A DNA stretch of 64,000 bases from Chloroflexota bacterium. Lineage in GTDB: Bacteria; Chloroflexota; Dehalococcoidia; UBA2979. The stretch covers positions 1 to 64,000 of the forward strand of contig JAQCIU010000006.1 in the NCBI GenBank assembly GCA_027593235.1, in the 5' to 3' direction. The position numbers were made by a program, and so were the translations under genes. The notes beneath the pieces are model-generated. The model ran no database searches, was not told where the DNA came from, and was given only the letters and a program-made list of their open reading frames with translations. The first letter of the stretch is position 1; each line of letters opens with the position of its first letter. Of this stretch, positions 1 through 5,647 are shown in pieces.

Positions 1-355
1 GGCCGGGCGGCACGCCCTCGAGCTCCCGCAGCAGGCGGGCGCTGCGCTCCGCGTCCGTGAGCAGCGGCCCGCCGTAGCGGGCCGAGGTGACGCCCGGCCG
101 CCCGCCCAGCGCGTCCACCTCGAGGCCGGAGTCGTCCGCGAGCACGGGCAGACCGGAGACCTGCACGACCGCCACCGCCTTGGCGACGGCATTCTCGAGG
201 TAGGAGCGTCCGGTTTCGATCACCTCGGCGTGATCGACGCCCGCCTCGGCGAGGCTGAGTGCGTGCCAGCCCGTCGGTTCAAGCAACGCGCGAATCTCGC
301 GCAGCTTGCCGGCATTACCGGTGGCGACGATGAGGCGGGGTGAGGCTTTGGTCAT
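1..355 (-). CDS. rdgB: Non-canonical purine NTP pyrophosphatase (RdgB/HAM1), 3' end outside window
   Basis: Hand translation from ATG 355: MTKASPRLIVATGNAGKLREI...ETGRSYLENAVAKA...LADDSGLEVDALGGRPGVTSARY. These are the ATxNxGK and ADDSGL HAM1 motifs. Not in the ORF track because it is truncated. Confidence 0.95.
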   Translation of the reverse strand, partial: MTKASPRLIVATGNAGKLREIRALLEPTGWHALSLAEAGVDHAEVIETGRSYLENAVAKAVAVVQVSGLPVLADDSGLEVDALGGRPGVTSARYGGPLLTDAERSARLLRELEGVPPG

Positions 356-361
356 CGGGTC

Positions 362-1141
362 CTACTCGGGTAGGGCGAACGGTTCGAGCAAATAGTCCGG
401 GGAGTCGCCGCCCTGCGCAAGAAGGGTGTCGGCGGTGTTGCCGCACCCGCCCACGCGCCGAACCACCATCCCCGCTTCAACGATGAATCCTGTCACGTTG
501 GACGGTGGGTTCCCCGGGACCACAAAGACAAGGAGCTGGTCTCCGGCTGGTGCGAACTCACCATCCACCACCGAGTCCGGCACCTTCGCCACGGCGAAGA
601 GGGCCACCAATTCAGGGTCGAACGGAACGACGAACGGGCGCTCATGCTGTGGGTATCCGTGACAGTTGCCGGCGAAGAAGAACTCAACGAGCGTTCCCTC
701 CGCGACACCCTCCGGGCAGACCTCCATGTCGCCGAGACCAAGCACCACTTCGTGGCAGACCGCGGACTGCGCCCGGACCAGCGCATCGAGCGCCGCCTGA
801 TCATCGCCGAACAATGCGTCAATCACTCGATCCACCTCGATCACCCCGGTCCGTCGCGCGTTCGTCGCGACGATCCGATCGGGCGCCATCGCCTCAGCCG
901 TGGGGAACGGCGTCGGTGTCCGGAGAATGAACGGTGCACGAGTCGTTGCAGCAGGGGTCGGCGAATCGACTACGACGGGAGTCCCTGTAGTGGCGGTAGG
1001 CGCTGCCGAAGTGGACTCGACAGAGTCGGTCCCATCGGGCGGCGTTCCATCCGACGTACAGGCAGCGATCAGCAGCGCGGCGAGCAGAGCCGACATCACG
1101 GAGCGAAGGCCATGCCTGCGCAGTCGGTGCGTGACCGTCAT
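362..1141 (-). CDS. Hypothetical lipoprotein with Thr/Pro-rich linker and Cys-containing C-terminal domain
   Basis: Hydrophobic stretch ending LIAAC (lipobox-like), then a T/P-rich linker. Co-oriented, ends 6 nt before rdgB. Start uncertain. Confidence 0.65.
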   Translation of the reverse strand: MTVTHRLRRHGLRSVMSALLAALLIAACTSDGTPPDGTDSVESTSAAPTATTGTPVVVDSPTPAATTRAPFILRTPTPFPTAEAMAPDRIVATNARRTGVIEVDRVIDALFGDDQAALDALVRAQSAVCHEVVLGLGDMEVCPEGVAEGTLVEFFFAGNCHGYPQHERPFVVPFDPELVALFAVAKVPDSVVDGEFAPAGDQLLVFVVPGNPPSNVTGFIVEAGMVVRRVGGCGNTADTLLAQGGDSPDYLLEPFALPE

Positions 1142-1226
1142 CGGTCACTCCTCGGCGATTGAGCGATCCCTGGAGCGATGAATGCCCCAGTGAGGAACGA
1201 AAGAAACTGGCGCGGAGTTCCGCGCG

Positions 1227-2264
1227 CTAAGCGTCCGCCCAGCGCGACTCGGTGCGGGCGGTCGCGGCCGGCAGCTCGGCCTGCTCCTCCTCGTCCAGCG
1301 GCAGCCGGTGCGGTTCGAACGGGCCGTGGCGGCGGAGCACGTCGGCGAGGCGGTTCGCTTCCTCCCGCGCGCGATCGAACGAGGGGTCGGCGAACAGGTC
1401 CCGCGCCTCGCCGAGCTTGCCGCCCGACAGCTCGAAGCCGAGCGCGACCGCGCGTGGCGGGCCATCGAAGCGGCCGGGCGCCGCGTCGCGCTTGCTGACC
1501 GGCATCCAGGGTCCGAGGTGAGATCCGCGCGTGAAGCCTTCGACCAGCGCGGGGATCGCGAACGGCTCCAGCGCCTCGCCAACCGTGGGGAGATCGCCGT
1601 CACAGCGCACGATCGCCAGCGGGTGCTGATGACCGGCCATCCCGGCCACCGCGGCGATCCGATCCGTCGAGGCCACCGCCGCTACCGCGCCGGACGACCG
1701 CTGGATCACGCGTTTCACGGCGAAGCGCCCCGGCGACCCGATGTAGGCAAGCAGGTCGTACAGCTCTTCGGGGGTGTTGAAGACGGCCTTGCGGTGTTCG
1801 AGGCTGTCGTGCACCTCGAACGAAGCGCCCTGGCTCAGTGCCGTCGAGAGCACGAGGCCCGGCGTGTTGAAGGGATCGGCGAACGCACGATAGAGCGGCA
1901 GGTTGAACGCGCCGGTGGCGGTGCCGACGCCAGCGAAGGCGATCAGCGATTCCGTTGGCCGTTCTTCCAGCGTCAGCTCGCAGACGCTCACCCCCGCAGC
2001 CTCCAGGTCGCCGGGGAACGGCTGCGGCGGTGGATCGGCCGCTGCGGCGAGCGCGTCCCAGGCAGCGCGGTGCACGGCGGCGTCGCCCTCACCCCGTCCG
2101 TGCGTCAGCAACACCCAGAGCCCGCTACCCAGCGCCCGGACCTGCACGTCGATCACGTCGCCGGCCACCAGCGCGGGCGCGAACCGTTCGAGGACCAGCG
2201 CAGCGGTCTTGCCCATGGCGGGGCTGTCCAGCGTGGCGGAAAGAGCCGTCAGCGTTACGGGCAC
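1227..2264 (-). CDS. Fructose-1,6-bisphosphate aldolase/phosphatase (class V FBPase) homologue, catalytically degenerate
   Basis: Family motifs NLPLYxxFADPFNTxGLV, TPEELYDLL, RGSHxGP, RFDGPP and RHGPFEPHRL are present. KAD, GDD, YGAGQD, DK and GKDDP catalytic motifs are absent. Confidence 0.9.
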   Translation of the reverse strand: MPVTLTALSATLDSPAMGKTAALVLERFAPALVAGDVIDVQVRALGSGLWVLLTHGRGEGDAAVHRAAWDALAAAADPPPQPFPGDLEAAGVSVCELTLEERPTESLIAFAGVGTATGAFNLPLYRAFADPFNTPGLVLSTALSQGASFEVHDSLEHRKAVFNTPEELYDLLAYIGSPGRFAVKRVIQRSSGAVAAVASTDRIAAVAGMAGHQHPLAIVRCDGDLPTVGEALEPFAIPALVEGFTRGSHLGPWMPVSKRDAAPGRFDGPPRAVALGFELSGGKLGEARDLFADPSFDRAREEANRLADVLRRHGPFEPHRLPLDEEEQAELPAATARTESRWADA

Positions 2265-2303
2265 GCGCTCAACCGCCGTCCTCGATCGTGAGCCGGGTGG
2301 CGA

Positions 2304-3263
2304 CTAGCTTGCCAGTGCCTGGTCGATTGCCTCAACGGCGCTGGCGTTGCCGATGAACAGCGGCGTGCGCTGGTGCACGGATTCCGGGACCAGATCCAGC
2401 ACTGGCCCATCGCCGGTGCTGGCCGCTCCGCCCGCCTGCGCGGCGATGTAGGCGAACACCGCGGCCTCGTAGAGCACGCGGATCTTGCCGCGCGGGCTGG
2501 TGGAGTCCGCCGGGTAGAGGAAGACACCGCCGCGTACGAGATCGCGGTGAAAGTCGGAGACCAGCGATCCGACGTAGCGGAGCGACCGGCCCTCGCGAGC
2601 GACGTCCACGGCGCGGCGAACGTCCGGGTCCCAGCGATCCTCGTAGCCCTGGTTCACGCTGTAGTACGGGCAGGCGTCCGGGATCCGCACCGCGGGCCGG
2701 GTGAGCCGGAACTCGCCGCTCGTATCGTCGAGGGTGAACTCCTGCACGAGGCCCGGCGTGGCGATCACCAGCACCGTGCTCGATCCGTAGAGCACGTAAC
2801 CGGCGGTCACCAGCTCGGTGCCGGGGCGCAGGAACGGCGCCTCGCCCGCCAGCGGGACTCCATCGGGTGACGGAAACACGCCGAAAATCGAGCCAATTGT
2901 GATCGCAATATCGGCATTCGAGGTGCCATCGATCGGATCGAGGACGCAGAGGAACGACGGATCACCGTTCGGGATCTCGAAGAACTTCGGCGCGGCCAAT
3001 TCCTCGCAGACGAGCCCGGCGACGGCGTCGCTCGCATCGAACGCCTCGACGAACCGCTCGGTGCCGAGGATGTCCAGCGGGTGCACGACCTCGCCGTGGA
3101 CGTTCCGCGCGCCCTCGGGATCCGGGGCCGGCAGCAGCGCGCCGGCGCGGACGTGGTGCGAGACGTCGCGCGCAGCCTCCACGATCGCGGCGAGCACGCG
3201 CGCGAGTACAGGATCGTCGATGCCCTCGACGGGTGCGGCGATACCAGCGACCGGTTGAACCAT
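2304..3263 (-). CDS. fbp: Class I fructose-1,6-bisphosphatase
   Basis: CEE, DPIDGTSN, AGYVLYGSST, RYVGSLVSDFHR, GKIRVLYEA and HQRTPL motifs. Start placed at ATG 3263 (MVQPV); the ORF track extends to 3380. Confidence 0.92.
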   Translation of the reverse strand: MVQPVAGIAAPVEGIDDPVLARVLAAIVEAARDVSHHVRAGALLPAPDPEGARNVHGEVVHPLDILGTERFVEAFDASDAVAGLVCEELAAPKFFEIPNGDPSFLCVLDPIDGTSNADIAITIGSIFGVFPSPDGVPLAGEAPFLRPGTELVTAGYVLYGSSTVLVIATPGLVQEFTLDDTSGEFRLTRPAVRIPDACPYYSVNQGYEDRWDPDVRRAVDVAREGRSLRYVGSLVSDFHRDLVRGGVFLYPADSTSPRGKIRVLYEAAVFAYIAAQAGGAASTGDGPVLDLVPESVHQRTPLFIGNASAVEAIDQALAS

Positions 3264-3424
3264 GCGCCCGCTCCCGAGGCCCAACGCGGGCCGCCTCACT
3301 GATCGATGCGTTCCCGCGGGATCACAAACTCCCGGAAGCCGGCGTGCTCGACGACTGTCGCGGGGCCCCGAAGATACCATCGGCGCGTTCTGCCCGTCGG
3401 CCCAGCCAGGCGCCGCGACGACCG

Positions 3425-4147
3425 CTACGAGGAGGCGAGTTGCCTCGTCAACGCCGCGATCGCGGCCTCCGCGACCGGGCGCGTTTGCGCCTGGACGTAC
3501 CAGTCAAGCTCCACCGAGCGAGCCATGAACGCCTGGAGCGCGGCGAGCGTCCGGCGCGCCCACTCCTGCGCCTGATCGTCGTCACTCTCGAGGGCCGGTC
3601 GCTCCCCCTGCAGCCGCCGCCGGCCGGCCCGAGCGCCGGCTGCCGCCGTGTGATCGCGCAAGGCGCCACGACCGGCCGCGAACAGCATCCCGCCGAGCGG
3701 GGTCGCGATCGGCGGCACCCCGGCTGCCAACGCCTGGGCGGTCACGGCGAAACCGGGGGATTCGTACTCCACGATCAGGCTGCCGGGGGCCGGCAGGCGC
3801 TCGGCGAGCGCGGTGAGCGTGCGCAGCAGGATGCCCTCGGGCACGTCGACCGTGCGGCCGTCGGCCAGCGGCAGCCGCGCGCGATAGCCGGTCACTTCGA
3901 TCCACGCGTGATCGCCGGCCCGGACCGGGCTGAGCAGCCCGCTGATCATCGGGAGCGCGGTGCGCCCGAGGTCCGGCGTCGCAAGGAAGAGACGGAACCG
4001 ACGCCCACCGACACGCGTACGCGGGCCAATCTCCGCGACCAGCGAGACATCCTCCCCGACCTCGAATCCATCGAGGCCCGCAAGGAGGTGAGCCCCGACG
4101 GGGTCGCACGGCTGCCAGGCAGGGTCGGTCGGTTTGGCGGCGATCAT
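3425..4147 (-). CDS. DUF1122-like protein (divergent)
   Basis: LIVEYES...TAQALAAGVPPIATPLGGMLFAAG...RRLQGE resembles the DUF1122 core as I recall it. Start placed at ATG 4147. Confidence 0.55.
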   Translation of the reverse strand: MIAAKPTDPAWQPCDPVGAHLLAGLDGFEVGEDVSLVAEIGPRTRVGGRRFRLFLATPDLGRTALPMISGLLSPVRAGDHAWIEVTGYRARLPLADGRTVDVPEGILLRTLTALAERLPAPGSLIVEYESPGFAVTAQALAAGVPPIATPLGGMLFAAGRGALRDHTAAAGARAGRRRLQGERPALESDDDQAQEWARRTLAALQAFMARSVELDWYVQAQTRPVAEAAIAALTRQLASS

Positions 4148-4270
4148 CGGGCGTGACACTACCAGAGCAGAGCCCGGCGTCGGCGGCAGCGACCGCCGAC
4201 GCGGCGGAGGCAGCGAACGCGGGCGCGGCGTGCACCTCAGACGATCGATCGCTCCGTACACTGGCGAGCC

Positions 4271-5647
4271 ATGACGATCGCACCGGACGATACCGATCTC
4301 GCCCGCTACGCCGACGCCGTGCGCCGGCTGCTCGCGCACGGCGGCTTCGAGCTGAGCGGGCGCCCAGCCCAGGCAGCGCGCTGGGAGATCTCCCACGTGC
4401 GCGCCCACCTGGACAAACACGGCAGTCCGGATGCCCGGCGGACCGTGCACGTCGCGGGGTCGAAGGCGAAAGGCTCCGTCACGACGATGACAGAAGCGCT
4501 GCTGCGCGCAGCGCTCCCGACCGTCGAGGGCCAATCGCGAACGATGCGCTACACCTCCCCGGATCTGCACAGCGCCCGCGAGCGGATCGCGATCGACGGC
4601 ACGATCATCGATGCCGCTACCTTCGCTCGGGTCGCGGATCTGGCACTGGCCGATCCAGACACCGAGGGCTGGTCGTACTTCGAGCTACTGACGTTGATGG
4701 CCTGGCAGGCGGCCGCTGACGCGCATTGTCGCTGGCAGGTCCTCGAGGTCGGCCTCGGCGGACGCCTCGATACGACGAACGCGATCGCCGAGAAGGCGGT
4801 CGCCGTGATCACACCGATCGACCTCGAACACACGGCGATCCTCGGCGAGACGATCGCGGAGATCGCCGCCGAGAAGGCGGGGATCCTGACCGGCCCCTGC
4901 GACCTGGTGATCGCACCGCAGCGTGCCTCGGCGCTCGATGTGATCCGCGCGAAGGCTGATGCGGTCGGGGCGCGGATCCACGCGATCGCCGAGGAGTGCG
5001 GGCTCCGCGTCACCAAACAGTCGCTCGACGAGCTGCAGTTCGATCTCAAGACACCGCTCTTCACCTACCGGCAGGTCAAGCTGGAGCTGCTCGGGCCGCA
5101 CCAGGCAGAGAACGCGGCGGCGGCGATCCGCGCCGCTGAGTTGGCACTCGCAACCGAGGGCATCGCGCTGACCGAACCGCTGGTGCGCCAGGCGCTGGGC
5201 GCCGTTCGGCTGCCCGGCCGTGGCGAGATCATCGGACGCAAGCCGCTGACGATCGTCGATGGCGCGCACACCCCGCTGGCCGCGAAGCGGCTGCGCGAGG
5301 CGCTCGACGGCGCCGGCGTTCCACGAGGGCGCACGTTCGTCCTCGGAATCCTCGAGGGCAAGGACGTCGAGCCGATCGTGCGCGCGCTGTTGCGGCCGGA
5401 GGATCAGGTGTTCATCGCAGCACCGCAGAGCCCGCGCGCAGCGGATCCTCGGGAGATCGCCGCGCAGGTGCGAGCGATGGGTGCGGCGGCCAGCACGACA
5501 CCGGATGTCGCCACCGCATTGGAACGTGCGACAGTCGCCGCGAGCGAGCGGGGCGCGGTGATCGTGACCGGCAGCCTGCGTACGGTGGCGGAAGCGCGCG
5601 AGGCGCGATTGGCGATCACAGGGGACCGCGCCCTCGGGCTGAGATAG
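4271..5647 (+). CDS. folC: Folylpolyglutamate synthase/dihydrofolate synthase
   Basis: HVAGSKAKGS P-loop, YTSPDL..RERI, EVGLGGRLDTTN, IDLEHT..LG, EKAGI, PGR, DGAH, TGSL. Confidence 0.95.
   Translation: MTIAPDDTDLARYADAVRRLLAHGGFELSGRPAQAARWEISHVRAHLDKHGSPDARRTVHVAGSKAKGSVTTMTEALLRAALPTVEGQSRTMRYTSPDLHSARERIAIDGTIIDAATFARVADLALADPDTEGWSYFELLTLMAWQAAADAHCRWQVLEVGLGGRLDTTNAIAEKAVAVITPIDLEHTAILGETIAEIAAEKAGILTGPCDLVIAPQRASALDVIRAKADAVGARIHAIAEECGLRVTKQSLDELQFDLKTPLFTYRQVKLELLGPHQAENAAAAIRAAELALATEGIALTEPLVRQALGAVRLPGRGEIIGRKPLTIVDGAHTPLAAKRLREALDGAGVPRGRTFVLGILEGKDVEPIVRALLRPEDQVFIAAPQSPRAADPREIAAQVRAMGAAASTTPDVATALERATVAASERGAVIVTGSLRTVAEAREARLAITGDRALGLR

Follow-up and report, generated by a model that had tools for sequence, protein, structure and literature searches.

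The DNA analysed here, called the window below, is a stretch of 64,000 nt (positions 1 to 64,000 of contig JAQCIU010000006.1) from a Chloroflexota bacterium of the class Dehalococcoidia. Close to one end of the window a putative class I fructose-1,6-bisphosphatase (FBPase) gene, fbp, is followed directly by a gene coding for a homologue of the bifunctional aldolase/phosphatase (FBPA/P) of fructose-1,6-bisphosphate (FBP) that appears to be catalytically dead. The first-pass annotation, made from the sequence alone, had described the latter as an uninterrupted open reading frame (ORF) of 345 aa beginning 39 nt past the fbp stop on the same strand, and the ORF coordinates agree with this (Table 1).

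Table 1 Features at and around the fbp-FBPA/P locus of the window
Feature	Position	Strand	Evidence and remarks
rdgB-like gene, cut at the window edge	2..355	(-)	Named by eye from the translation; conserved neighbour on the downstream side of FBPA/P in the family
ORF of 259 aa, lipoprotein-like N-terminus	362..1141	(-)	No Pfam match
Terminator-like GC hairpin with T-rich tail	1210..1225	(-)	Begins 2 nt past the dead ORF's stop codon
Dead FBPA/P homologue, 345 aa, GTG start, stop-free	1227..2264	(-)	ORF and PF01950
Spacer of 39 nt, fbp stop to GTG	2265..2303	(-)	Purine-rich GAGGA...GGCGG, resembles a ribosome-binding site
Putative class I fructose-1,6-bisphosphatase (fbp), 319 aa	2304..3263	(-)	PF00316 and PF18913
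DUF1122-domain gene, upstream of fbp	3425..4570	(-)	PF06557, E 5e-08

The fbp frame is open over 2304-3380 (-) with a TAG stop at 2304-2306, and the public gene call (P0121, 319 aa) places the start at 3263. The public call of the dead gene (P0001) has 329 aa and begins at Met17. T4 and L5 of the 345-aa form are invariant in 22 sequences of the dead clade described below, which supports the longer form with the GTG start. A single contig from an independent DNA run covers 1100-2655 and differs from the window only once, and among related strains there are substitutions and no indels; the arrangement is thus real and not an assembly artefact. There is no terminator-like site within the 39-nt spacer, and this, together with the hairpin after the dead ORF, hints weakly, by position only, that the dead gene may be co-transcribed with fbp. 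Terminator-like sites number 2 in 4.7 kb compared to 1.4 expected, and it is their position alone that is notable.

Judged by its sequence, the 345-aa protein is unambiguously a full-length class V FBPA/P homologue. It matches Pfam PF01950 over residues 30-342 (E 4.3e-96) and the solved FBPA/P structures 1umg and 3r1m (E ~4e-82) and 3t2b (4e-75). An AlphaFold2 (AF2) model based on 69 sequences (predicted local distance difference test, pLDDT, 81.8; predicted template modelling score, pTM, 0.86) resembles 3r1m with a template modelling (TM) score of 0.85, and a structure search with the model gave seven clear matches (E 5e-36 to 1e-31), all of them FBPA/P entries. This model superseded an earlier one from 22 sequences, the mean pLDDT of which (65.8) was too low. 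In sister genera, moreover, the intact orthologues occupy the chromosomal locus at which the dead gene lies here. The protein differs from FBPA/P in its score on the NCBIfam equivalog model (NF041126), 315.7 bits against a cut-off of 520, and in having replaced or deleted its Schiff-base Lys, His18, the acidic metal ligands, the Gln loop and the Tyr at the C-terminus.

These losses were read from a HMMER alignment to ST0318 and from MAFFT alignments with up to 115 intact homologues. Of the metal-ligand residues (the Asp of KAD, the His of GH, GDD, the Gln loop and DK) the dead protein keeps none: KAD has become SAT, GDD has become GSG and DK has become VG, and the GGxVGH and YGAGQD loops are deleted. 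RYVGKDDP is replaced by MAGHQHP, with the Schiff-base Lys and the next Asp-Asp gone, and EMEY by EEEQ, in which Gln stands at the position of the C-terminal Tyr (ST0318 Tyr347). The YxGKDDP DNA pattern was not found in the window's own genome. FADPFNT, FEVHD, RFDGPPR and HGPFEPHR are kept. The substitutions that had been seen by eye at KAD, GH, GDD, YGAGQD, DK, YxGKDDP and EY were each reproduced in the machine alignments, including that to ST0318, in which the Lys/Asp ligands are indeed gone, and the FADPFNT, RFDGPP and HGPFEPHR regions that had been named as kept were seen there as well. In the 115 intact sequences, conservation is 95 % or higher at each of the 12 positions treated as catalytic. 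A signature of nine residues, scored in 163 sequences, was complete in 115 and reduced to one or none in 34. According to the available part of the report on Coxiella CinF (PMC8740755), Tyr347 of ST0318 is required for both FBPA/P activities and the Y347T variant is inactive. The alignments and the predicted structure together support the claim of the first-pass annotation that the catalytic residues are lost and the core fold is intact.

The same degenerate clade, a search for which had been suggested, was found in other genomes: about 23 clusters of proteins, 60-77 % identical to the window protein, share its losses. One subgroup consists of short forms of ~341 aa like the window protein, and the other of full-length forms of ~364 aa in which the catalytic residues are replaced and the loops not deleted. 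Next out are hundreds of intact FBPA/Ps of Dehalococcoidia and other Chloroflexota with ~50 % identity. When 30 dead and 115 intact sequences were compared, the two groups shared one conserved residue in 98 columns (those of FADPFNT, FEVHD, RFDGPPR and HGPFEPHR among them), 33 columns, among them every catalytic position, were conserved in the intact group only, and no more than 4 gained conservation in the dead group. Within the 22 dead-clade sequences ~100 columns remain invariant.

That only 4 columns were gained argues against a new active site. A protein that is still an enzyme, catalysing a different reaction with, for example, the His found at the Schiff-base Lys position (GHQHP), is in our opinion very unlikely. 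This His is present in most of the ~341-aa and ~364-aa forms and many of the motifs around the former pocket have survived, and there is a precedent in CinF (Cbu0513) of Coxiella burnetii, described in the available part of its report (PMC8740755) as an FBPA/P homologue that has no FBPase activity and was repurposed as a protein phosphatase and secreted effector. However, the metal-ligand acidic residues are all gone and two pocket loops are deleted in the window protein, the His is not kept in the related genome G007 (GIETP) or genus g8 (GNDTP), and CinF, according to the same source, requires the C-terminal Tyr, which is Gln in the dead protein.

The neighbouring Fbp aligns with the E. coli FBPase 2gq1 (E 1.5e-62) and keeps the EE, DPxDGxSN and GKxRxxYE motifs. 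Across 49 sequences there is little or no variation at its residues E87, E88, D109, D112, K260, R262 and E266, in agreement with the 2gq1 alignment. With both domains and the metal and substrate motifs present, it looks as intact as had been stated. Its best NCBIfam equivalog score is 275.3 bits compared to a cut-off of 368, and we regard it as representing a divergent subfamily of the class I FBPases.

The history of the locus was followed in 99 genomes (G numbers) from 21 genera (g numbers) of the GTDB family to which the window genome belongs. Throughout this family the gene order is fabF - folC - DUF1122 - [fbp] - FBPA/P - rdgB, and the ancestral locus is DUF1122 - intact FBPA/P - rdgB. 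An fbp gene 50-87 % identical to that of the window is inserted directly upstream of FBPA/P in g1 (the window's own genus), g21, g5, g8 and g12; in g8 a DhnA-type aldolase gene lies between fbp and the dead gene. A distant fbp (36-42 % identity) and a PRK06852-type aldolase gene are found downstream of FBPA/P in g14, g18 and at one copy in G073. The synteny with class I fbp that was to be checked thus extends over several genera, with fbp inserted at a conserved FBPA/P locus.

An FBPA/P homologue is present in 95 of the 99 genomes, the YxGKDDP DNA pattern in 69, always within the FBPA/P gene, and a class I FBPase in 32. All 26 genomes with a motif-less homologue (counting G021, in which the gene is a fragment with the motif region unassembled) have a class I FBPase, usually inserted at the FBPA/P locus, compared to five of the 69 motif-keeping genomes. 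Among these five the two genes are adjacent in G016 and G122 and apart in G076 and G111, and the fifth, G073, carries FBPA/P in two copies. As intermediates, G016 and G122 have an inserted aldolase gene and fbp beside a still intact FBPA/P. The four genomes without an FBPA/P homologue are 70-80 % complete, and one of them has a class I FBPase. Because of the family-wide association (26 of 26 against 5 of 69) and the conserved locus, the non-orthologous replacement proposed in the first-pass annotation is well supported, and the displacement took place in situ.

Displacements were counted on a tree built from folC, fabF and rdgB, the genes linked to FBPA/P, with a quick method and with the Shimodaira-Hasegawa-like approximate likelihood ratio test (SH-aLRT) as the only support measure. 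The neighbour genes place g1, g21, g5 and g8 in one clade (SH-aLRT 96), and about 4-6 separate events can be distinguished, namely in g1+g21+g5+g8, in g12, in g18, in g11, in G022 and in the G073 copy. G022 belongs to g20, and its sister G070 is intact.

Partly dead forms, found in G022, G073, G077, G078, G032, G115 and G020 and in several metagenomic proteins, repeatedly have Asn or Ser in place of the Lys, Gly or Ala in place of Asp11 and Phe or His in place of Tyr347, and the other acidic ligands remain. In G078 seven of the 12 catalytic positions are changed compared to nine of 162 other conserved positions (p = 8e-6). Catalytic positions are preferentially changed also in G032 (p = 0.002) and G020 (p = 8e-4), and the excess is not significant in G022 (p = 0.16) and G077 (p = 0.08). 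The pattern fits catalysis-specific relaxation, or selection for inactivating an unregulated enzyme, and does not tell these two apart.

A search for a separate aldolase elsewhere in the genome had also been suggested. The window genome has one class IIA FBP aldolase (G000:C13:21035-22048; 434 bits on NF006628, cut-off 297), and all the genomes with a dead copy that were examined proved to have a stand-alone aldolase. In G001-G003, G007 and G023, which have no PF01116 or PF01791 matches, this is a class I aldolase of the Fda type (NF003784); that of G003 scores 480 bits (cut-off 392), and the remaining ones share 67-79 % identity with it. The Fda-type gene was not found by tblastn in the window genome, which is 89.7 % complete. 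Close relatives accordingly differ in their FBP aldolase, with class IIA in the window genome and the Fda type in three congeners and in G007 and G023. Class II aldolase was considered as a co-acquired replacement and rejected, PF01116 being present in 77 of the 99 family genomes, including those with intact FBPA/P. No second PF01950 homologue was found in the window genome, and G001-G003, G007, G010, G014, G023, G029 and G033 have one PF01950 match each. As the sole FBPA/P homologue of its genome, the dead protein cannot regulate an active paralogue, and this part of the original proposal does not hold.

Selection on the dead gene was estimated as the ratio of nonsynonymous to synonymous substitution rates (dN/dS) by the method of Nei and Gojobori (NG86), the dS values of which were saturated (-1) in pairs with G002. 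The ratio was 0.065 between G014 and G033 (dS 0.21), 0.07 between G010 and G029 (dS ~1.1, near saturation), 0.18-0.21 within g1 and 0.23-0.31 between genera. For the same pairs the neighbours gave 0.07-0.21 (fbp), 0.08-0.15 (fabF) and 0.08-0.28 (folC). Among the strain differences listed, beyond which a further 33 exist, 19 of 25 in the dead gene and six of seven in fbp are synonymous. No internal stop was found in any FBPA/P match in the 99 genomes, and the dead gene is kept in all nine genomes of the g1+g21+g5+g8 clade. The dead gene is under purifying selection, as had been claimed, with ratios of 0.065-0.31 that are not near 1 in the window's clade. Because of the complete retention and the dN/dS values similar to those of housekeeping neighbours, simple decay is excluded for this four-genus clade.

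Taken together, we consider it probable that the lineage's own FBPA/P was displaced by fbp and an aldolase, became catalytically dead and has been kept under selection in a non-catalytic role. The class I fbp was inserted directly upstream of the bifunctional FBPA/P, and a stand-alone aldolase is encoded elsewhere in the genome. Afterwards the old enzyme lost its Schiff-base Lys, the metal-ligand acidic residues, the C-terminal Tyr and two loops, its core fold remaining intact. Purifying selection has kept its frame open while at least four genera diversified, and the protein would now serve in a role other than catalysis. Catalytic positions are lost preferentially, usually with the Lys first, and the rest is constrained, which fits a protein still needed after its unregulated activity had become redundant or harmful.

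Several observations weigh against this reading. All the genomes are metagenome-assembled, and that of the window is, as noted, incomplete. Related genomes are not independent, and the association of 26 out of 26 comes down to the 4-6 events counted above. The roles of 11 of the 12 positions called catalytic are those reportedly assigned in structure papers of 2004 and 2011, and only that of Tyr347 is taken from PMC8740755. The constraint on the dead gene is relaxed about two-fold, not lifted: its dN relative to that of folC is ~0.6-0.9 compared to ~0.45 for intact FBPA/P, the latter value coming from one intact pair (G019-G013). In g18 the dN/dS of the homologue is 0.2-0.8, two to three times that of the neighbours, the otherwise invariant RFDGPPR and HGPFEPHR are missing and the protein is cut short at its C-terminus. 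Strong constraint on a retained gene thus holds for the window's clade and g12 and not for every lineage. In a sample of 251 genomes of the class, 27 had a class I FBPase above the cut-off, and all 23 of these that lie outside the family were without a PF01950 match. In G058, fbp and a class I 'Glycolytic' aldolase gene occupy the homologous locus and FBPA/P is missing. The loss in other families means that some lineages can do without the gene's role, whatever it is; displacement usually ends with the gene gone, and in the window's family it was caught at intermediate stages. Of the 22 public sequencing runs listed, 20 contain the stretch or part of it, and the single RNA library among the 22 gave one contig of 212 nt (2336-2547), which lies inside fbp.

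Some of the same observations would suit a slow neutral relic, a functionless gene on its way to loss with a frame still open because the displacement was recent or the decay is slow. The graded decay in g18, where identity to the intact reference drops from 83 % to 35 % within one genus alongside the high dN/dS and the truncations, looks like such a process, and so do the absence of FBPA/P homologues from the other families with class I FBPase and the RNA contig that covers fbp and not the dead gene. A relic would, however, hardly have dN/dS values equal to those of housekeeping neighbours (0.065-0.3), be retained in every genome of four genera, remain free of internal stops, show mostly synonymous strain differences and preserve ~100 invariant columns. 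We regard it as an improbable explanation for the window gene.

For the constrained dead protein itself, the likeliest role, suggested only tentatively, is that of an oligomeric scaffold, or of a protein binding sugar phosphates or other proteins, which would act in gluconeogenesis and be co-expressed with Fbp. Nucleic-acid binding was considered, and nothing points to it: the mean isoelectric point (pI) is 4.9 for dead and 5.2 for intact proteins. A more specific possible role is that of a dedicated regulatory or channelling subunit, with the dead protein bound to Fbp and perhaps also to the aldolase. In g1, g21, g5 and g12 the two genes are on the same strand and at most 39 nt apart or overlapping, in the window they are not separated by a terminator-like site, and in metagenomes the Fbp orthologues and the dead clade have parallel identity ranges. 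The whole region is nevertheless syntenic with or without fbp, so that the adjacency follows from the insertion site of fbp and is not in itself evidence of an interaction. The aldolase gene separates the two in g8, and in G117 and G119 fbp is on another contig with the dead gene in place. Co-folding of Fbp with the dead protein, run without controls, gave ipSAE values of 0.00 and 0.00 and speaks neither for nor against such binding. A search for fusions among longer proteins found 34, none of which contained PF00316; in 33 an intact FBPA/P is fused to a sugar-binding domain of the SorC type (PF04198), and the remaining one, P0242 (PF01950 and PF06557), has an Arg/Pro-rich tail and resembles a wrong-frame gene call. 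A dedicated partnership with Fbp seems rather doubtful. A stronger form of the scaffold role, with the dead FBPA/P as a required subunit on which the new FBPase and aldolase assemble on the old oligomeric scaffold, we consider quite unlikely. If true, such a complex would recreate the ancestral channelling of triose phosphates or add a metabolite-sensing control, and the displacement would have yielded a new multi-enzyme gluconeogenic complex instead of a leftover gene.

The PF04198 fusions (P0241 and 32 similar proteins) are ~638 aa long with a C-terminal domain of the SorC/CggR type, and two are labelled by source as Desulfobaccales and Thermodesulfovibrionaceae. The PF04198 domain may be a built-in regulatory domain.

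FBPA/P is regarded as an ancestral gluconeogenic enzyme. That an unrelated enzyme takes over a reaction, and that an inactive homologue is kept, are known in general from non-orthologous displacement and from pseudoenzymes. The present case differs from these in that the displacing gene sits at the displaced gene's own locus, and in that intact, partly dead, fully dead and lost states occur within one family. Full-text searches of the published literature brought up no account of FBPA/P homologues that are catalytically dead. The closest published precedent, as far as the available part of the report goes, is CinF (PMC8740755), which is alike in being a protein of the FBPA/P fold that no longer acts on FBP. 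It differs in that its active site works and requires Tyr362, whereas the window protein has lost the catalytic set and is encoded in what appears to be a central-metabolism operon.

The window gene probably codes for a pseudoenzyme left by non-orthologous displacement, and the unusually complete natural series of intermediates raises its interest. The stages at the one locus are intact FBPA/P alone, intact FBPA/P with inserted FBPase and aldolase, loss of the Lys first, loss of all catalytic residues and loops in a gene that is still constrained, fast decay, and absence of the gene. Such a series offers a natural system in which to study the course of non-orthologous displacement and the reasons for which some dead enzymes are retained. 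A constrained dead copy implies a second, so far undescribed role for the FBPA/P scaffold. In metabolic reconstructions, these Dehalococcoidia would be given the wrong route of gluconeogenesis.

Some further observations concern the surrounding genes and other members of the FBPA/P family. The DUF1122 gene is the upstream neighbour of FBPA/P throughout the window's family, whether FBPA/P is intact or dead. As a general partner of FBPA/P it was rejected, since it was adjacent in only five of 80 loci from other genomes, those apparently belonging to this family, which indicates lineage synteny. The homologous portion of its product covers about residues 135-381, and the long ORF overlaps the divergent folC start, the true start lying probably downstream of 4570. 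The 259-aa ORF that separates the dead gene from rdgB codes for a Thr/Pro-rich linker and for an N-terminus resembling a signal peptide with a lipobox; it is found in the window and in G001 (47 % identity) and not in other relatives. Two g20 genomes carry, in tandem with the canonical intact FBPA/P and directly upstream of it, a second and very divergent paralogue (G067 L150 4412-5551; G070 L151 2657-3775). This paralogue has 29-30 % identity to the intact reference and keeps Y-S-G-K-D-D-P. In a genome of another family (G057:C16:48080-49043) the FBPA/P match falls in two adjacent pieces (query 21-143 and 158-344), which could be a frameshifted or broken copy. Families f6, f21 and f28 have a distinct FBPA/P subfamily with matches of ~1113 nt that score ~450-470 bits on PF01950, compared to a typical ~600, and that are 33-37 % identical to the window protein.

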